The notes under the pieces: generated by a model
What the model saw: only the letters and a program-made list of their open reading frames with translations
Told to the model about the DNA's origin: nothing
Database searches by the model: none
Position numbers and translations under genes: made by a program
Shown here: one piece after another, positions 13,721 through 31,692 of the stretch
Layout: each line of letters begins with the position of its first letter
How positions within the stretch are numbered: the first letter of the stretch is position 1
Assembly (NCBI GenBank): GCA_965237955.1
Contig: OZ250169.1
Span: 4,352,001 to 4,416,000 of the forward strand
DNA length: 64,000 nucleotides
DNA from: Candidatus Marinacidobacterales bacterium
GTDB taxonomy: Bacteria > Acidobacteriota > Vicinamibacteria > Marinacidobacterales > SMYC01
Reading direction: 5' to 3'

Positions 13721-14560
13721 CTATGACGCCGTCGCCTCCGTGTATTTCCTATGAGATTTAGCCGGCGGGTGAGGTTCGTCCGAACCCGCCGGATGGAGCG
13801 CTCGCCACAGTTCGGAGTGCTCTCTCATGCGGTAACTGTTTCCTCGGATGTTGACGAGGTGGCAGTGGTGCAGAATGCGGTCGATGAGAGCGGCGGCCAT
13901 GACTTCGTCGCCAAGGATCTCGCCCCATTCCTCGAAACTTTTGTTAGAGGTGAGCACGGTCGAAGCGCGCTCGTATCGCCTACTTATGAGCTGGAAAAAA
14001 AGCACCGCGCCGGTCTGGGTGACGGGTAGGTATCCGATTTCATCGACAACAAGCAGTGACGGATAACTGAGAACCGCGAGTCGACGAGTGAGGCGGCCCG
14101 CGTCACGAGCCTCTTCGAGGGAGGTGATGAGCTCAGCCAGGGTGCCGTAATAGACGCGCCGTCCATTCTGGGCAGCGGCGATGGCAAGACTAATCGCGAG
14201 ATGAGTTTTGCCCACACCAGGAGGTCCCAATAAGACGACGTTCTCCTTACGTTCAACGAACCCGAGCTCGTGAAGGTTCTCAATCTGCTCGCGTTTGATC
14301 GATGGCTGGAACGAAAAATCGAACTCATCGATTGTTTTGACCGCGGGGAGTCGTGAGGAGCGCATCGCCGCTTGGAGACGACGGTTGTTTCTCAACGTGA
14401 TCTGCGCTCCAAGAAGGTTCTCGATGGCCTCCGCCGTTGTGACCGCACCGCCATCGGCATCAGATAGTACGCGGTCGACAGCTTCGAGCGCGCCAGGCAT
14501 CTTTAGGTCGGCCAGCATCGTACGGATCTGCTCACGTCGCGATATTGTGCTCGCCTTCAT
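13721..14560 (-). CDS. istB: IS21 helper ATPase IstB
   Basis: GPPGVGKTHLA Walker A, LLVVDEIGYL, LTSNKSFEEW, DRILHH, GNSYR. Confidence 0.96.
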   Translation of the reverse strand: MKASTISRREQIRTMLADLKMPGALEAVDRVLSDADGGAVTTAEAIENLLGAQITLRNNRRLQAAMRSSRLPAVKTIDEFDFSFQPSIKREQIENLHELGFVERKENVVLLGPPGVGKTHLAISLAIAAAQNGRRVYYGTLAELITSLEEARDAGRLTRRLAVLSYPSLLVVDEIGYLPVTQTGAVLFFQLISRRYERASTVLTSNKSFEEWGEILGDEVMAAALIDRILHHCHLVNIRGNSYRMREHSELWRALHPAGSDEPHPPAKSHRKYTEATAS

Positions 14561-15612
14561 TGTCCACCTCCAACGAGCCGCGTGTAGACTTCGAGGGGAC
14601 GATGCTCGACATCCATCGAAGGCAGTGTGGTTAAGCAGGCTTTTGGAGTTCTTCTCGCGGGTTGGTTTGGCAGTACAAGAGAGCGATATGGCCGCTCAAC
14701 GAGCGGTCTCAGAGTGGCCCTTTCACCGCGCGCGAATCGTTCTATCGGTCGTTCGTTGGTTGTGCGATGGAGTCGGACGTTGGCGACGTCACTCAGCCAA
14801 CGCTCGAGCTGAGCATCGAGGTCGTCATCGTTGATAAAGTGGCGACCGTAGAAGAAGCTTCCTCTCACATAGCGGATTGGCCTTTCCACTTTGCCCTTGG
14901 TCTTCGCCCGATACGGGCGACACGCTCTTGTTCGAAACTCCCAGTGGTGGGCGAAGCGGACGAACTCTGGGTTCTCAACGAGAGGGCCACCTTCCCGGCG
15001 GTGATCCTCGACGATGACCGAACGCATCTGGTCAAAAAGGAGCTCTTTGGGAACTCCTCCAAAAAATAGGAAGGCCTGCTCAAGCCCCGCGAACAACGTC
15101 CGCATGTCCTGTCGCTTGAAAAACCGAAGCCATAGCAGCCTCGAGTATCCGAGCACCACGAGAAGTGCCCACCGACGACCCCATGGCAAACGAAAGTGTG
15201 CAAAATCGACCTGAGCTTGGTGGCCTGGTGGGGTCTCGAAACGCACCAGCGGCTCCGCCGGTGGCTGTGGGCGAATCTGCCGCACGTACTCCTTGACCTG
15301 CGTGTAGCCGCCTTCATAGCCCGCGGCACGGATCTCATCATGCAGGCGTACTGAACTCAGCTCCGGGAACTCGTGCAGGCGCGAATGAAGGATCTCCCGG
15401 TACGGGTCGATCCTGCGCTCGATCCGCGGACGCTTCTTGTAGCGCACCGTTTCCTCGTCCAACTCTCGGTCCAGTTGACCCGTCTTTATCCAGTGGTGGA
15501 CCGTTCGGCGGCTGATTCCTAGCTTGTCTGCTAGCGCCGCCTTCTTGATTCCCTGCTCCAAATACTCTCGTAGTAACACTCGTTTCTCCCTTCCGTACAT
15601 CGGCGCCTCCAC
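14557..15612 (-). CDS. istA: IS21 transposase IstA
   Basis: RFETPPGHQAQVDF, LGYSR, PYRAKTKGKVERPIRY. Confidence 0.96.
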   Translation of the reverse strand: MEAPMYGREKRVLLREYLEQGIKKAALADKLGISRRTVHHWIKTGQLDRELDEETVRYKKRPRIERRIDPYREILHSRLHEFPELSSVRLHDEIRAAGYEGGYTQVKEYVRQIRPQPPAEPLVRFETPPGHQAQVDFAHFRLPWGRRWALLVVLGYSRLLWLRFFKRQDMRTLFAGLEQAFLFFGGVPKELLFDQMRSVIVEDHRREGGPLVENPEFVRFAHHWEFRTRACRPYRAKTKGKVERPIRYVRGSFFYGRHFINDDDLDAQLERWLSDVANVRLHRTTNERPIERFARGERATLRPLVERPYRSLVLPNQPARRTPKACLTTLPSMDVEHRPLEVYTRLVGGGQ

Positions 15613-23875: not shown

Positions 23876-25594
23876 GGTTCTCCTGTCGTTTCGGGGGATC
23901 TGATTTGTGTTGGAGGGCATGGCCTATGGACGCTGCCGCGATTGTGGAAAACGCCGGAAACTCCGGGCGAGAGAGGCGTTTAGGGAAAGGTTGTGAGCAC
24001 GTACAAACGTGGAGCGGCGTTTTCCACAATCGCTTGGAAAACGCTTCGCGTTTCCCACGAGCGCCCACAGGCCCCTCCTGATATATATACAAGAAAGATT
24101 AATTCATATGGAATAAGGAAGGGGGGGCTCGATTAGTGGAGGCTATGGAAAACGCCCTTCCAGGCTTCGAAGAGAACTCAGTCGTGAGCAAGGTCTGAAC
24201 GACCAGAACCGTGGGGGCGTTTCCCACAGCCTTGTCTCCCGCTGAGGGGCAGTGGCATTTGGTGAGGCCCGTGGGTTGAGAGGGTAAGCCATGTGTAGAT
24301 GCGCATCGGCGAGAACGCTAGAATCTTTTTTCCCGAAAGAGAAAAGAGCGTTCCCGCGATGCGCGTTACTACGTTAGTCAACAAGCTCATCGGATTGCAA
24401 GGCCTGTGGGTCCGAGGTTTCCACTTCCAGGCGGACAAAGCCAGAGTGGTGGTGGATGTAGTACCACGGAGGAGGAAGCCTCTGTGCGGGATTTGCGGAC
24501 GAAAGGTCCGCAAGAACAAAGATCGCTACAATCGCTACTGGCGGCACTTGGACCTGTTCGGAGTCCGGACCTATCTTCGCTACTCGATCCGACGAGTGGT
24601 ATGTCGGCGGTGTGGAGTGGTCAGAGAAAAGGTGCCTTGGGCAGACAAGGGAAGCCGCTTTACCAAAAGCTTCGAACAAGAGGTAGCGTGGCTGGCACAG
24701 AGGACGGACGTCAGCGCCGTAGCGAACTATTTCCGAGTGACGTGGCGTTCGGTGCGACGGATCATCCAGCGAGTGGTTGCCGAGCAGCGGGATGAGCGGC
24801 GCGAGCTCGATGGATTGCGGGTGATTGGGATGGACGAGATCAGCTACCGCAAACGCCACAAGTACTTAACAGTGGTAATAGACCATCTCAGCGGCCGGGT
24901 CGTCTGGGCGGGAAAGGAGCGCAAGGCCAAGACGCTGCTGCGGTTTTTCCGCAAGCTCGGACCACAAAGAGCCGCGGAGCTCGAAGCGGTCAGCATGGAC
25001 ATGTGGGAGCCGTACATAACTGTCGTCGGCAAAAAGGCTCCTCAGGCACGGGTGATCTTTGACCGCTTCCACATCGTCAAGCATCTGAACGAGGCCGTGG
25101 ATAAGACCCGGCGCGAGCTGGTGCGCGAGCTCAAAGGGACTGCCCGGCGCAACCTCAAGAACACCAAGTTTCCCCTTCTCAAGGCCAAACACAACCGCAG
25201 CGCGAAAGACAAACGGGTGCTCCGCGAGCAGGTGCGAGCTAATCGTCGCCTCTACCGCGCCATGCTTCTGCGCGACGACTTCATGGACCTCTACACCTAC
25301 AAAACCGAGACATGGGCCAAGAAGTTTCTCCGAGGATGGCTGCGGCGCGCTATGAGCTCGAGGATAGAGCCCGTCAAACGCGCGGCGAAGATGATCCGCA
25401 GCCACTTCGATGGCGTCATCGCGTGGGTCACGTGGAGACTCAGCAACGGCCGACTCGAAGGAATGAACAACAAAATCCGGCTGCTGAGCCACCGCAGCTT
25501 TGGACTCCACTCTGCCGAAGCTCTCATCAGTCTCGTCTACCTAAACTGTGGCGGTCTCACCCTCGAGAGGATCCACTGAAATGGCAGGAGAGGC
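23876..25594 (+). mobile_element. ISL3-family element, complete copy
   Basis: IRs GGTTCTCCTGTCGTTTCGGGGGATC and (rc) GCCTCTCCTGCCATTTCAGTGGATC. Flanks AAAATTAA / AAAATTAG. Confidence 0.92.
24299..25579 (+). CDS. ISL3 transposase (true start may be ATG 24359)
   Basis: CxxC zinc finger, IGMDEISYRKRHKY, SMDMW, FDRFH, SNGRLEGMNNKI. Confidence 0.95.
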   Translation: MRIGENARIFFPEREKSVPAMRVTTLVNKLIGLQGLWVRGFHFQADKARVVVDVVPRRRKPLCGICGRKVRKNKDRYNRYWRHLDLFGVRTYLRYSIRRVVCRRCGVVREKVPWADKGSRFTKSFEQEVAWLAQRTDVSAVANYFRVTWRSVRRIIQRVVAEQRDERRELDGLRVIGMDEISYRKRHKYLTVVIDHLSGRVVWAGKERKAKTLLRFFRKLGPQRAAELEAVSMDMWEPYITVVGKKAPQARVIFDRFHIVKHLNEAVDKTRRELVRELKGTARRNLKNTKFPLLKAKHNRSAKDKRVLREQVRANRRLYRAMLLRDDFMDLYTYKTETWAKKFLRGWLRRAMSSRIEPVKRAAKMIRSHFDGVIAWVTWRLSNGRLEGMNNKIRLLSHRSFGLHSAEALISLVYLNCGGLTLERIH

Positions 25595-25638: not shown

Positions 25639-26827
25639 CTAGTCCCATGGAACAGAAAAAGATAGACAACACTGGCACTTCTGTGATCTGCTAAATGCAT
25701 GAAACACAAGGGCCGGCGAAAAGCCGAATTGAAGCTGTCGTCTCAAGAAAGCGAAGCGCTGACGCGACTGGCGCGACGCAGCCGTAGTTCGCCGCACCAA
25801 GCCTTCCGAGCGAAGATCGTGCTGGATTGCGCGGCGGGTCTGACGAATATGGAAGTTGCTAGGAAGATGCACACCATGAGGAGCACGGTGGGCAAGTGGC
25901 GAAGACGCTTTGTAGAACAACGAATGGAAGGGTTGTACGACGAACCTCGGCCGGGAGCGGCTCGCAAAATCGGCGATGACCAGATCGAGGAAGTCGTGAC
26001 CAAGACGCTGGAGACGACTCCAAAGGGGAGAACCCATTGGAGTACGCGCTCGATGGCCAAGCATCTTGGGCTGAGTCATTCGACGATTGGACGTATTTGG
26101 CGAACGTTCGGGCTTCAACCGCACCGCTCGGAATCGTTTCGTCTCTCGCAAGACCCACAACTGGTCGAAAAAGTACGCGCCGTTGTTGGCCTGTATATGA
26201 ACCCACCGGATAACGCGGTCGTCCTGTGCGTCGACGAGAAATCGCAGATTCAAGCGCTCGAGCGTGCTCAACCTGTCCTGCCCATGAGCTTGGGCCAGCC
26301 CGAGCGACAAACCCACGACTACATTCGGCATGGAACGACTGACCTGTTTGCCGCACTCGACGCCGCAACAGGTGAAGTCTTCGGAAAGTGCTACGCGCGA
26401 CATCGAGCGCTAGAGTTCAAGAAGTTCCTCGCTGAGATCGAAGCAGCCGTTCCCAGCGAGTTGGACATCCACGTCGTGCTCGACAATCTCGCCACGCACA
26501 AGACACCGGCGATCAAACGCTGGCTTTCCAAGCGACCTCGGTTCCACTTTCACTTCACACCGACACACGCCTCTTGGCTCAACTTCGCTGAGCGCTTCTT
26601 TGGCTTGCTCACCGAACACGCCTTGCGACGAGGCTCGCACACGAGCGTGCCTCAGCTCCGCGTTGCGATACAAGACTATCTCGATGCTCACAACGAGAAC
26701 CCAAAGCCGTTCAAGTGGACGAAATCCGCCGACCAAATCCTCGAAACCATCGCTCGGTTCGCCCAGCGAACGCTCGATACACATGGCAAATCGAATTTGG
26801 ACAGTAATTAAAGATCCAGGGGACTAG
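25639..26827 (+). mobile_element. IS630-family element, copy 2 (no adjacent MITE)
   Basis: Same CTAG-bounded 1189 bp as copy 1, with about 3 substitutions. Transposase at 25699..26811. Confidence 0.95.
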
Positions 26828-27282
26828 CTACTCAACGCCCGCTCGGTCTCGACCAATTTCTCATCGTGTCCCATGAGCACGAGCACATCGCCGCCCATAA
26901 GCTGCTCTTGCGAACCCGGGTTGAACAGCATGTCATCGTGCCCGCGTCGTATGGCGACGATGATGACTCCGAAGTCGGCGCGAAGCTGGGCGTCGGCGAT
27001 CGAAAGCCCTGTCAGCTTCGAGGTTTCGGACACCTTGGCTTCGATGAGGCTCATCTCCATGTAGTGCCGGTCGGCGACGTGCTTCATGAACTGCAGCACC
27101 GTGGGGCTTGTGGCGGCTTGAAGAATGCGATGACTCGCGAGGTTATACGGCGAGATGACCTCGTTCGCGCCACCTCGTCTCAACTTGACTTCGCCGCGCT
27201 CGTCTAAGGTCCGTGCGAGTAACGTCCACAAGACGAGCATGGCGACGCCCAAGCGAAGTTCATATCGCCACCACCGTATGAC
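26824..27282 (-). pseudogene. Potassium channel remnant (first TM joined to TrkA-C/RCK-C)
   Basis: KLRRGGANEVISPY...GLSIADAQLRADFGVIIVAIRR..FNPG..GDVLVLMG. The pore and most of TrkA-N are missing. Confidence 0.75.
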
Positions 27283-28142
27283 CGGGCGGTTCTCCCACCG
27301 TCGCTTCCTCATCGACCGAAAGCATATCGCATCGGCGGTGCCCTCTCGGTGCGGACTTTGCCGCTTTGCTGTGGTAAAACTCGCTCAGTCCGCCATGCGA
27401 CTCCAGTTGGATCGGATCCCCCGGGTGGACGACAGTGATGGATTGCGGGCTGCTCGAGCACAGAATCGACCACTTGGCGAGCGAGCTGGATGCGGCGACA
27501 CAATACCTGTCCGTGGATGGCGGCGGTGATTGAGCACGAGTCCAAGAGGTGATTGTGTGACGACTCCCCACAAGAGCATTCTGTGCCCGGTTGATTTCTC
27601 GGACATTTCTCGGATGGCCGTGAGCTGGTCTTGCCAGCTCGCCAAAGAGCTCGAGGGCGAGCTCACCGTGCTCCATGCGCTCGACACGGCGTTGTTGAAC
27701 GTCGGGAATCTCGTGGCGGCTCCGGATAGCGCGGCCGAGCTGCGGAGCCAGGCGGAGAACGAGATGGCGGCGTGGGCCGACGAGCTGGACCTTGCGGGCT
27801 CGCGCGTTGTGATCGAGGACGGCGTTCCCGCGGACGTGATCGTCAAAGCGACCGAGGAACAAGACGTCGACTTGCTCGTGATGGGAACCCACGGGCTCTC
27901 GGGGCTCCAGAAACTGCTCCTGGGCTCGGTCATGGAGAAAGTGCTTCACCGCGTCCAGGTGCCGCTCCTGTCGTTTTCTCCCAGATCACGTAATGCCCCG
28001 TACGCCCCGAAGAACATCTTGCTCGCCGTTGATTTTGGTCCGGAAACGAAAGGGAATTACATCCAATCGTAACCAAAAACCCTCGACATCCTAGCCTCGC
28101 CATGTTACGATTAGACATTAAAATTAGACGAGGAGGTTAAAG

Positions 28143-29108
28143 ATGGTGCGGCAAGCACCGGGCAAACATTTTAGGAAGGGGCTTTCGCTAGTTGAGATCA
28201 CGCAGATGTTTCCGAACGATAGTGCAGCGGAAACATGGATCGCAAAAGCCAGGTGGGGGAACGATCCGGCTTGCCCGCATTGCGGAAGCCTTAACGTCCA
28301 GGTCGGTGCGAAACACCCATCCCAGAACTACCGTTGCAGGGAACAGCAATGCCGGAAGTTCTTCGGAGTGAAAACTGGGACCGCGATGGCTGGAAGTAAT
28401 CTAGGATTGCAAGTCTGGGCCATCGCCACGTATCTTCTCGCCACTGGCCTCAAGGGTCGGGCGAGTATGCAACTCCACCGCGATCTAGGAATCGGGCAGA
28501 AAGCCGCTTGGTTCTTGGCGCACAGACTCCGAGAAGCTTGGGGAGATAACCAACCTACATTCTCAGGTCCGGTGGAAGTGGACGAGACTTACATCGGTGG
28601 CAAGGAGCGGAACAAGCACTCCCACAAGAAGCTGAATGCCGGGCGCGGGACCGTCGGCAAGACGGCCGTCGTAGGCGTGAAGGACCGCAAGACGAACCGA
28701 GTCTCTGCTGCCGTCGTGGAGAATACAGATGGCCCAACGCTTCAAGGTTTCGTCAAGTCTCGGGTTGCCGAGGAAGCCACGGTCTACACCGACGACCACG
28801 GAGGCTACCATGGACTACCGAATCACGAATCGGTCCGGCACAGCGTCCGCGAGTACGTCAACGGACAAGCCCATACCAACGGGATCGAGTCCTTTTGGGC
28901 ATTGCTCAAACGTGGCTATTATGGTACGTACCATCGCATGAGCCCAAACCACCTTGGGCGTTACGTCTGCGAGTTTGAGGGCAGACACAACCAGCGTGAG
29001 TCTGATACGATCGATCAGATGACCGCCATGATTCGCGGCATGGACGGGAAACGGCTACGGTATCGAGACCTCACGGCCATCAAGCCCGGCGGACAAGTCG
29101 CTGGCTAG
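28143..29108 (+). CDS. IS1595-family transposase
   Basis: CPHC..C..C zinc finger, VEVDETYIGG, YTDD, HTNGIESFWALLKRG. Confidence 0.95.
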   Translation: MVRQAPGKHFRKGLSLVEITQMFPNDSAAETWIAKARWGNDPACPHCGSLNVQVGAKHPSQNYRCREQQCRKFFGVKTGTAMAGSNLGLQVWAIATYLLATGLKGRASMQLHRDLGIGQKAAWFLAHRLREAWGDNQPTFSGPVEVDETYIGGKERNKHSHKKLNAGRGTVGKTAVVGVKDRKTNRVSAAVVENTDGPTLQGFVKSRVAEEATVYTDDHGGYHGLPNHESVRHSVREYVNGQAHTNGIESFWALLKRGYYGTYHRMSPNHLGRYVCEFEGRHNQRESDTIDQMTAMIRGMDGKRLRYRDLTAIKPGGQVAG

Positions 29109-29111
29109 GCC

Positions 29112-29924
29112 ATGCCAAAACCAGAAGTTCAGACGGAACTTGGTCGCCTCTATCACGCCGACTGTCTCACGGTTCTACCGGAGATACCAGCCGGTATCGT
29201 AGATACCGTTTTTGCCGATCCACCGTTCAACCTCGGCAAAGAGTACGGTCCAAGCGTCAATGATAATCGATCGAATTCAGAGTATGTGCAATGGTGCGAG
29301 ATGTGGATTCGAGAATGTGTGCGCGTGCTGAAATCGGGTGGGGCGTTCTTCCTCTACAACCTGCCGCGCTGGAACGTCACTCTCGGCACTATTCTCCAAA
29401 AGCATGGACTCTCGTTTCGCCACTGGATCGCTATTGAGCACACCGGGCGGTTACCGATTCAGGGGCGTCTGTATCCCTCACACTATTCTTTGATCTACTA
29501 CACGCTAGGCAAGCCTGCGACGTTTCGCCGAATTCGGACTCCTGTTGAAACTTGCCGTCACTGCGGTTTGGAGATCAAGGATTACGGAGGTCATCGTCCC
29601 GCGATGAATCGAAACGGAGTAACCCTCAAAGACGTGTGGACTGATATACCGCCAGTTCGTCATGCGAAGTATAAGCCAGAAGGGCGTTCAGCTAATGCGC
29701 TCAGCACAAAAATCGTCGAGCGCGTGATCGAAATGAGTACTGATCCAGGCGACCTTGTATTAGACCCATTCGGCGGAAGCGGAACGACGTATGCGGTTTG
29801 TGAGCAACGCGGTCGGCGCTGGATCGGTGTGGAGCTTGAAGATCTTGAACCGATCCGGCAGCGTCTCGATGGTCAAGTTCAAAATCACGCGAACAGCGAC
29901 TATGTTGAAACATGCCGATCCTGA
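29112..29924 (+). CDS. Beta-class N4/N6 DNA methyltransferase, M.BamHI-like
   Basis: DPPF motif IV precedes DPFGGSGTT motif I. LPIQGRLYPSHY, KDYGG and DVWTDIPPVRH blocks recall M.BamHI. Confidence 0.88.
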   Translation: MPKPEVQTELGRLYHADCLTVLPEIPAGIVDTVFADPPFNLGKEYGPSVNDNRSNSEYVQWCEMWIRECVRVLKSGGAFFLYNLPRWNVTLGTILQKHGLSFRHWIAIEHTGRLPIQGRLYPSHYSLIYYTLGKPATFRRIRTPVETCRHCGLEIKDYGGHRPAMNRNGVTLKDVWTDIPPVRHAKYKPEGRSANALSTKIVERVIEMSTDPGDLVLDPFGGSGTTYAVCEQRGRRWIGVELEDLEPIRQRLDGQVQNHANSDYVETCRS

Positions 29925-30400
29925 CGGACAGCCGCGACTATAACGGATTTCTAGCGAAGGTCCAGCGTCTCGGACTGGATCGCCTTGTTGACGATATAGA
30001 AGCTGCGGTGACCGGTTTCCGGCTTCGCGTATTGGAAGAACGCCACGCGAACGGAACACGACAGATCCGGCAACAAATCGACGACCAGATCGAGGCTTTA
30101 GACGGTTGGCGTAAGCTAACGGTCGGTGGGGTAGACTGGACAAAGGGGAATGAGCAAGGTAGCAAGATTGGCGCAGAGATTCAGGTTTCTGGACGTAGTG
30201 ACCTTCTGGCCGTTGACGTACTGCACCTTCGCGAGGAGCTTATAGCTGGGAACCTTGATGCCGGAATTATCATTGTTCCAGACGATAAGCTGTCAAGGTT
30301 TCTGACAGACCGCACGCCGAACTTTCGAACAGCACGGCGACACAGAGAACACCGGAGACACTTAAATCAGAAGCATGGTTTACACCCGACACCGCTCTAA
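29912..30400 (+). CDS. Putative type II restriction endonuclease of the BamHI/BglII/BstYI fold, C-terminus possibly truncated
   Basis: VD...EIQ catalytic-like motif and GIIIVP...FLTDRTPNF, resembling BamHI YLTDRVTNF. Overlaps the MTase stop. Confidence 0.65.
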   Translation: MPILTDSRDYNGFLAKVQRLGLDRLVDDIEAAVTGFRLRVLEERHANGTRQIRQQIDDQIEALDGWRKLTVGGVDWTKGNEQGSKIGAEIQVSGRSDLLAVDVLHLREELIAGNLDAGIIIVPDDKLSRFLTDRTPNFRTARRHREHRRHLNQKHGLHPTPL

Positions 30401-30409
30401 GGAGGAAAC

Positions 30410-30586
30410 ATGAAGCGCACGAGGGAGAAGTCGAAGAAGCGCAGAGGCCGCCCGGTCACCTACCCCATACCAGAGCCAATTCCAGACACGCCCGAGAACA
30501 TCATGAAGGCGATTCTGGCTACCCCACCGAAGGGCCGTGACGAGTGGAAATTCATGCAGGAACGGAAGCGGAAACGAGCTCGCTAG
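30410..30586 (+). CDS. 58-aa basic protein inside the IS1595 right end (below the ORF-track cutoff)
   Basis: AAGGAGG RBS. MKRTREKSKKRRGRPVTYPIPEPIPDTPENIMKAILATPPKGRDEWKFMQERKRKRAR. Confidence 0.7.
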   Translation: MKRTREKSKKRRGRPVTYPIPEPIPDTPENIMKAILATPPKGRDEWKFMQERKRKRAR

Positions 30587-31167
30587 AAGACCTGGTTACG
30601 ATTGGATGTAATTCCCAAACGAAAAGCGTCGTCCGCCACGGACCACGGAGTGTGGCTCGCCGAGCACTTCGGAGCCAGGCTTTTCGGTGCGCACGCCGTG
30701 CCGGTGCCGTACGTCGTGCTCAACGATCGATCGATGGAACGGCTGACACCCGAGCAGCTCGAGCGATTGAAGGACACGCTCACTGCCGAGAGAAGGGAGG
30801 AGCTCTCCGAGCTTTTCCCCGATTCGTCGTTACCGGTCGAGGTCGTCTCCACCGTGGGCTCCGCCTATCGCGCGATGCTGGACGCCGTCGAACAGCACGA
30901 CATAGACCTCGTCGTCATGGGACGCGGCGGGCACGGCCGGCGCAATCTCGGCTGGGTTGGCTCGACCTGCCACAAGATGGTTCGCTCGTCGCCGTGCCCG
31001 ATTCTCATCGTGCCGGAATGATGGCGAGAGCGGCGGTGGTGGCGTTTCTTCATTCGTGCTACCCGCTGGTTCCCGCCGCTCCAGTGCGTTAGCTGGCGCT
31101 GCCTACCAGCTCCACGAATCAGCTGCTTGCCGCCCGGCCGCGACCTAGCTCTGGTGCGGGAGCAAAA

Positions 31168-31510
31168 TTACGAATTCGGTACCCCCTCGGCGGGCGAGAC
31201 CACGGAAAGCGACCCGCCGTGAGCGTGGACGAGGGTTCGGGTGATCGCGAGCCCGAGGCCGAGCCCGCATTTTGCCAAGAGGCGCACGTCATCACCGCGG
31301 TCGCGGAGTCGGGGAAGCGAGATGGTGATGACGTTTAGCCGGTAGAACAGATCGCGTCGGAACGTCTCTGCCTCGATCATTTTCTTCAAGTCGCGGTTGG
31401 ATGAGGCGATCACGCGGACATCTACTTTGACGTCTTGCACGCCGCCGACTCGTACCGCTTCTTGGATGGCATCGGACTCGCCGACGATGTTCTCGAAGGA
31501 CAACCCGTCA
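31168..31510 (-). pseudogene. Chimeric remnant of a sigma54 activator AAA+ domain and a histidine kinase HATPase tail
   Basis: [12 protein letters not shown] | [29 protein letters not shown] | [18 protein letters not shown]. Confidence 0.75.
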
Positions 31511-31692
31511 CGAGCATCGTCGTCCGCGAAGGCGACGTGTACGCGGAGATCGAAGATATCCGCAAAAACGTCGATCCGCAGCTCGTGGTCATGGGCACGC
31601 GGGGGCTCACCGGGCTGGACCATCTCCTGGTCGGGAGCGTGGCAGAAAAAATGGTGCGCATATCCGAGATTCCGGTGCTGACGGTGCATTAG
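31511..31692 (+). pseudogene. USP C-terminal fragment
   Basis: [46 protein letters not shown]. Confidence 0.78.

Follow-up and report, generated by a model that had tools for sequence, protein, structure and literature searches.

An insertion sequence (IS) of the IS1595 family that probably carries a lone DNA methylase was found in the window, which here means the whole stretch of 64,000 nucleotides analysed (contig OZ250169.1 of a Candidatus Marinacidobacterales bacterium, positions 4,352,001 to 4,416,000). The element lies in a universal stress protein (USP) gene, and its inverted repeats (IRs) enclose a transposase, a methylase of the M.BamHI type, a nuclease of the BamHI fold and a small open reading frame (ORF). 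We estimate at roughly 0.8 the probability that this is a transporter IS (tIS) with an intact-looking methylase and a likely dead nuclease, and that the copy moves the methylase alone rather than a working restriction-modification (R-M) pair. What this copy spreads is likely methylation, not defence against phages, and the locus is probably no defence system. The gene order proposed by the first-pass annotation of this DNA was recovered unchanged, namely a transposase, a DPPF-type methyltransferase starting 3 bp after the transposase stop, an overlapping nuclease ORF and a small ORF.

The nuclease ORF (29912-30400) encodes 162 residues and overlaps the methylase gene by 13 bp. A homologue search returned at least 319 proteins, and the counts that follow refer to the 119 among the matches listed, the window's own protein excluded. 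The nearest of them, P0002-P0006, share 72-78% identity with the window nuclease. The length was 173-210 aa in 118 of the 119, all with a conserved C-terminus of about 30 residues; the remaining homologue (150 aa) breaks off within this tail and has the appearance of a fragment. The tail consensus, IxAFxHDGxGPALxKxRTNLG, was found in its strict form in 112 homologues and as an evident variant in six more. In the window nuclease seven tail columns that are at least 90% conserved are altered or absent. H144 (perhaps R148) is the last residue at which the protein follows its homologues, and alignments of the DNA to five relatives likewise lose similarity after codon 144-148. Next comes a non-homologous segment of about 66 bp. 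It brings in the early stop codon (30398-30400) and, for the small ORF, an AAGGAGG ribosome-binding site. The first-pass annotation had suspected a non-native tail after TARRH, which proved correct. It had also proposed a working R-M system, a claim that is not supported for this copy: the homologues have the longer conserved C-terminus that the annotation itself had named as the mark of a methylase with a dead nuclease. A single frameshift hiding the native tail was ruled out, as 30344-30412 encodes it in none of the three frames. An assembly artefact was rejected as well, since contigs of runs X1, X2, X3, X4 and X7 show the same truncation (five runs from three studies, one of which is possibly the source). 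At the nuclease stop (window position 30397) a single X7 contig, of depth 3, shows an extra base, which may be an error.

The AlphaFold model of a full-length homologue (predicted local distance difference test score, pLDDT, 91.5) contains strands at residues 3-10 and 154-160. Its best structural match was BamHI (template-modelling score, TM, 0.84; E 1e-10), followed by OkrAI, BglII and BstYI. In the model of the window nuclease both strands are gone and residues 147-162 fall below pLDDT 50, and the match to BamHI drops to TM 0.68-0.73 (E 2e-6). The fold claimed at first pass is thus supported by structure comparison of the models, and it is an incomplete nuclease fold in this copy. The profile scores remained below their cut-offs, with 14.1 bits against 22.8 for PF02923 (BamHI) and 14 bits against 26 for PF09195 (BglII/BstYI), for which siblings of full length score about 20. 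In two enzymes of the BamHI type, the counterpart of the missing K-x-x-T-N-L-G in the alignment is the P-K-G-x-D-G-M arm. In BamHI and OkrAI the C-terminal arm is described as reading the minor groove (PMC3025578). The lost residues, about 30 in number, likely correspond to the last strand of the sheet and the DNA-binding arm. The retained part also deviates at two of 44 columns that are at least 99% conserved, F60I and V88A, the latter adjoining the catalytic E89. Among the 119 homologues 106 have no such deviation, 12 have one and a single protein has two; by the same measure the methylase deviates at none of 87 columns. On these grounds the window nuclease is very probably inactive.

The methylase has the DPPF motif ahead of FGGSG, which is the beta order. 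Its best PADLOC match was MTase_II PDLC03238 (E 8e-103), the next best reaching 6e-40, and it showed no deviation at 107 columns conserved in at least 97% of 119 homologues. To judge from its sequence the enzyme looks intact. The similarity to BamHI-type enzymes covers the catalytic and target-recognition regions; the N-terminal extension of about 110 aa found in those enzymes is missing, as it is in the close relative P0123. Six plasmid records matched the methylase at E < 1e-30, of which four were inspected. Two of them (Geobacillus and Desulfocapsa) hold a 54%-identical methylase that is divergent from a helix-turn-helix (HTH) gene and a restriction gene, in one case annotated 'Restriction endonuclease BamHI'. 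The two further records inspected have no nuclease annotated beside the methylase. Both the PADLOC score and the identity to the methylases of these two plasmid systems bear out the earlier assignment to the M.BamHI type. M.BamHI has been used as a control for N4-methylcytosine (PMC3459991). The window methylase is likely active and would place N4-methylcytosine in GGATCC or a closely similar site. The window cassette, with its tandem methylase and nuclease genes, does not have the HTH controller gene of the two plasmid loci. Separately, a plasmid of Acetobacter pasteurianus (L121:2381-3322) encodes a methylase of 60% identity next to a second methylase and type I-F Cas genes; no nuclease is annotated for it.

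The ends of the element are perfect IRs fully complementary to each other and flanked by identical 8-bp copies of AAACGAAA (Table 1), exactly as the first-pass annotation had it. Between the outer ends of the IRs the element measures 2,565 bp. In X8 and X9, two runs that belong to different studies, contigs join position 28043 directly to 30617 and skip 2,573 bases; the eight letters at the junction fit either side, as expected of an empty site with one copy of the target-site duplication (TSD). The ends and the target duplication are therefore demonstrated rather than deduced from the repeats. Both contigs are about 1.4% diverged from the window (in X8, 12 other letters in about 870). The element is present once in the 8.13-Mb genome, where the left IR had no second match at up to five mismatches.

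Table 1. Coordinates of the element, its genes and the interrupted gene in the window.
Feature	Position	Strand	Basis
5' part of two-domain USP gene	27557..28051	+	PF00582
Left TSD copy, AAACGAAA	28044..28051	.	Single copy at empty site in X8, X9
Left terminal IR, 24 bp	28052..28075	+	100% complementary to right IR
Predicted sigma-70 promoter, TCGACA-17-TACGAT, extended -10	28083..28111	+	Promoter prediction
Inverted copy of inner IR segment over -10 box; putative transposase operator	28104-28115	+	Repeat search
IS1595-family DDE transposase, 321 aa, zinc ribbon, D147/D217/E249	28143..29108	+	Pfam, NCBIfam
M.BamHI-type DNA methyltransferase, 270 aa	29112..29924	+	PF01555, PDLC03238
Native part of BamHI-fold nuclease, residues 1-144 (homology possibly to 148)	29912..30343	+	Homologue alignment, models
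Non-homologous segment of about 66 bp in place of conserved nuclease tail	30344..30409	+	Alignments
Small ORF, 58 aa, RGRP...PEPIPDTPENI...W	30410..30586	+	Recurrence in siblings
Right terminal IR, 24 bp	30593..30616	-	Repeat search
Right TSD copy, 8 bp	30617..30624	.	Matches left flank; empty site
3' part of USP gene, frame shifted by 7-bp tandem duplication	30625..31021	+	PF00582, alignment

The transposase matched PF12762 with 132.9 bits (cut-off 27; E 1e-38), PF12760 with 34.1 bits (cut-off 25.4) and NCBIfam NF033547 with 174.8 bits (cut-off 75). No deviation was found at 55 columns conserved in at least 97% of 40 relatives, and the gene looks intact. An ISXO2-type DDE transposase with an N-terminal zinc ribbon, IRs of about 25 bp and an 8-bp TSD are the features of IS1595, and genes unrelated to transposition lie between the IRs of one IS, as in a transporter IS. 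The earlier view of a vehicle made of a single IS is borne out, with one transposase and the passengers inside the IRs. The element may belong to the ISNwi1 subgroup of IS1595. IS1595-family transporter ISs are said to have been treated by Siguier, Gagnevin and Chandler in 2009. The TnCentral preprint (10.1101/2021.05.26.445724), in its passage on tISs, defines them as ISs with passenger genes and restricts them to IS1595 and IS66. Two IS1595 examples, MTnSag1 (tISSag10) and tISCpe8, are described with 25-bp IRs and 8-bp duplications (PMC5704250), and resemble the window element in their single DDE transposase, their AT-rich target and their passengers inside the IRs. They differ in the passenger, which is a resistance gene there and a methylase-nuclease pair here, and in the conserved 58-aa backbone ORF near the right end of the window element. 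R-M genes between IRs of about 26 bp, with an 8-bp duplication and an empty site, were reported by Furuta, Abe and Kobayashi (2010, PMC2853133), including a Neisseria example in which an R-M gene is truncated and another gene has a transposase motif (COG3677). Compared with these units, the window element shares the R-M genes, the IRs, the 8-bp duplication and the empty site, but its transposase is intact and its cargo is a two-gene BamHI-fold system, not their Type IIG/IIP. IS1595 elements with passengers are a known class, to which the window element belongs as a real transporter IS; it is a decayed copy of one that moves an uncharacterised BamHI-fold R-M family.

Eighty-one loci were fetched for the nuclease family. 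A methylase match was present in 74 of them, with more than 1 kb upstream of the methylase in about 37, and in four (two distinct pairs) an IS1595 transposase and the small ORF surround the methylase-nuclease pair. One pair, L015 and L016, has IRs matching at 23 of 24 positions and no target duplication; the other, L038 and L039, has an N-terminal transposase fragment and no detectable ends. In the same phylum, G337 (locus L185) holds an intact element of 3,092 bp, with IRs matching at 23 of 26 positions and a perfect 8-bp TSD, CAAGTAAA, present twice; its nuclease has 179 residues and the nuclease stop overlaps the ATG of the small ORF. Three other IS1595 elements (G337/L185, L015/L016 and L038/L039) thus share the cassette, each with a full-length nuclease. 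The L039 copy (L039:2321-5750) consists of the cassette and the small ORF after a 140-aa transposase fragment, directly behind a 406-aa ORF that by inspection resembles an integrase and near a relaxase-like ORF; it is stranded and may ride another mobile element. Most members of the nuclease family are not borne by IS1595. A quick tree was built from methylase and nuclease rows of 48 of 86 loci, after partial, stop-containing and duplicate rows had been dropped. The five IS-borne rows fell in one clade of seven rows (SH-like approximate likelihood ratio test, SH-aLRT, 91) together with two transposase-less rows. Three label changes are needed on this tree, and a single capture by an IS is therefore neither shown nor formally excluded.

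A search for related ends with other cargo, proposed at first pass, was fruitful: siblings with the same GGGRATTA ends carry different passengers in the slot behind the transposase. In related genomes these include a 906-aa protein with N6-methylase and Eco57I domains (L102:3298-6018), a methylase-HNH fusion (L101:4342-5886) and a similar methylase ORF (L107:4027-5430). The small ORF recurs as 16 distinct sequences, three of them in other elements of the window's genome; on this recurrence it is assigned to the backbone and not to the R-M cargo. It had no Pfam or NCBIfam match, and an atlas search returned only unnamed hypothetical clusters (0.88-0.90). The basic RGRP start of its product may resemble an AT-hook, and the eight perfect target duplications in this IS group are 78% A+T; the small ORF could help to choose targets. 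The genome also contains IS1595 elements with GGGAATTA ends, 8-bp duplications and the small ORF at C1 positions 1023418-1024840 (+), 2525674-2528416 (+) and 5934808-5942024 (-), with differing small cargo ORFs. Among them, one has a frameshifted transposase, one has IS21-like and IS630-like insertions and another lies inside a unit whose IRs measure 37 bp.

A predicted promoter lies just inside the left end. Four sites were predicted in this region against 1.2 +/- 1.4 in shuffled sequences, which by itself is a weak result. The -10 box of this promoter is covered by the inner IR segment in inverted copy. Leaders were compared across 62 loci, of which 40 had a recognisable left end, 31 of them distinct; related elements in this set are not independent. 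A match to the element's own leader at nine or more of 11 bases was seen for 11 of the 31 distinct ends; in cross-comparisons between elements whose ends are dissimilar, 15 of 688 reached this level. The copy in the leader co-varies with the IR in L015, L131, L136, L151, L157, L171 and others, and a few elements (L126, L132) seem to have a direct copy instead of the inverted one. Many of the non-matching ends have TTGACA within the IR itself. This sequence pattern suggests that the transposase likely represses its own promoter and hence the downstream cargo, which has no controller gene. No literature on promoter autoregulation by IS1595 transposases was found in a search that left most subscription journals outside.

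The preferred reading is as follows. The four genes would form one operon read from the left-end promoter. The transposase would bind both IRs and repress that promoter through the extra inner-IR copy, and the methylase would modify GGATCC or a near variant. An ancestral element would have carried the full nuclease, and its tail would have been lost through a deletion or an exchange where the nuclease gene borders the small backbone gene. At the site, insertion would have come first, followed by a 7-bp duplication in the dead USP gene.

The whole cargo may instead be dead weight, the methylase being intact only because decay is recent and being barely expressed from a repressed operon. We consider this unlikely. 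It would agree with the single copy in the genome, with the several other IS1595 copies there that are frameshifted or interrupted, with the operator-like repeat over the predicted promoter and with the finding that depletion of GGATCC in the genome does not exceed that of other palindromes (rank 18 of 64, with an observed/expected ratio of 0.90). Against it, the nuclease has drifted at conserved sites and the methylase and transposase have not, which fits selection on the methylase after loss of the nuclease, although the numbers are small.

It is also doubtful, and somewhat more so, that the nuclease was clipped when the methylase-nuclease pair was swapped into the cargo slot, which would make this lineage a methylase carrier that never restricted. 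The replacement of the tail by unrelated DNA, rather than its simple deletion, speaks for such an event, as do the different cargoes that siblings hold in the same slot. The identities of the modules are discordant too, the small ORF being nearest to L038 (73%) and the cassette to L015 (65-70%), and the G+C content at third codon positions is 0.53-0.55 in the cargo and 0.65 and 0.74 in the backbone genes. On the other side, all IS-borne cassettes fall in the one clade of the quick tree, which suggests an old association of the IS with a full nuclease, and the 66-bp segment could be traced to no source in the genome or the fetched loci.

Several observations weigh against a dead nuclease. The catalytic and N-terminal recognition residues D75, E89, Q91, R95, D97, D133 and R134 are all kept, the frame is open for 162 codons with the methylase overlap preserved as in L015, and the core is modelled with confidence (mean pLDDT 80.7). 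As OkrAI shows, the fold moreover tolerates the loss of terminal helices, although OkrAI keeps the arm (PMC3025578). A working Type II system, in which the short nuclease still forms dimers and cuts DNA, if perhaps with low activity or loosened specificity, and so gives defence or addiction, is nevertheless very improbable: the catalytic triad and the dimer helices are retained and the model still finds BamHI by fold, but a strand of the full-length model and the arm conserved in 118 of 119 homologues are lost, and near-invariant sites have changed besides.

The specificity of the nuclease family was considered by comparison with BamHI and OkrAI (PDB 1BAM, 3BAM and 3ODH), with which it shares the fold and, in intact members, the C-terminal arm. 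Identity to these enzymes is only 16-20%. The equivalents of BamHI D94, E111 and D154/R155 are D75, E89 and D133/R134; Q91 takes the place of E113, N116 corresponds to G94 or R95 depending on which of two alignments is used, and R122 corresponds to V101. A GGATCC isoschizomer would have E-x-E and the readers N116, R122, D154 and R155. The window nuclease has E-x-Q and keeps only the D154/R155 pair. The first-pass annotation had drawn on E-I-Q for a possibly new specificity; all 61 aligned members have E89-x-Q91, which therefore marks the family, not the window copy. BglII and NotI are known to have a glutamine at the last catalytic position (PMC4081073). BglII and BstYI (PDB 1D2I and 1VRR) belong to the same fold family, and BglII shares this glutamine, but both are structurally farther from the nuclease family than BamHI (TM 0.61-0.66; E 1e-5 to 7e-4). 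BamHI D154 and R155 are described as readers of the outer G:C pair (PMC3025578). As these are shared and the middle and inner readers differ, the outer G:C is probably kept and the core is left open, and the GATC core or NGATCN site suggested earlier is unsupported. Site avoidance did not single out a recognition sequence: besides the genome-wide value for GGATCC given above, this palindrome had a z of -2.3 and ranked 4 of 64 in 64 coding pieces from the close family, which are non-independent sequences.

No match to the nuclease family was found among 72,556 plasmid records. Elsewhere, at least one locus was found in a single-protein search of genome contigs, along with two viral contigs; within the class two of 301 genomes had a match (the second weak), and within the phylum five of 401, the window's genome included. 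No close named or solved member of these BamHI-fold nucleases, at least 319 in number, was found in the searches made. The value of the system lies in these relatives, which appear to read the inner bases unlike BamHI and yet are paired with a BamHI-like methylase; this contrast lets shifts of specificity in a classic fold be tested directly. The inner-repeat copy over the promoter offers an easily tested clue to self-regulation in IS1595 elements and to the regulation of their cargo. As a speculation to which we give little credence, intact siblings such as G337 might be self-transposing R-M units of an uncharacterised family of BamHI-fold E-x-Q nucleases whose G....C specificity would be new. 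Their transposase, bound to the inner-IR copy over its own promoter, would take the place of a controller protein and set when methylase and nuclease are made after arrival; the window copy would then have shed the nuclease and become a mobile writer of the methylome.

Three alleles of the site occur in public runs: empty, inserted, and inserted with later decay. Together with the intact siblings available for comparison, they make the locus a snapshot of how a lone methylase can originate. The first-pass annotation stated that the USP gene reassembles across the TSD. This is not the case when only the element and one TSD copy are removed, as the frame shifts about eight codons downstream at a 7-bp tandem duplication (CCACGGA twice, 30636-30649) in the 3' half of the gene. 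When one CCACGGA copy is dropped as well, the 3' half is in frame and the restored reading is gap-free at the junction against the USP genes of all seven family relatives examined, the best of them 79.5% identical over 298 residues with no gaps. The 7-bp duplication is missing in both empty-site contigs and also beside the right end of the IS in run X7 (one contig of depth 2.6, hence weak), and is therefore probably later than the insertion. It likely arose in an already dead USP gene. The same contigs, with the same caveat for X7, ruled out that it is a footprint of excision from before the IS. The nuclease truncation is older than this duplication. The insertion had been called recent, which holds only relative to strain divergence, given that it predates the flanking duplication. 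In runs X8 and X9 an 11-bp deletion at 27594, flanked by short direct repeats, would put this USP gene out of frame; the gene is therefore broken independently in both alleles and seems dispensable.

The neighbourhood of the element is a region of decay. At window positions 13721-15612, 24299-25579, 25699-26811, 26824-27312 and 31168-31692 there are transposases of IS21 (with istB), ISL3 and IS630, along with a short TrkA-C ORF and gene fragments that abut, one from a sigma-54 activator and one from another USP.

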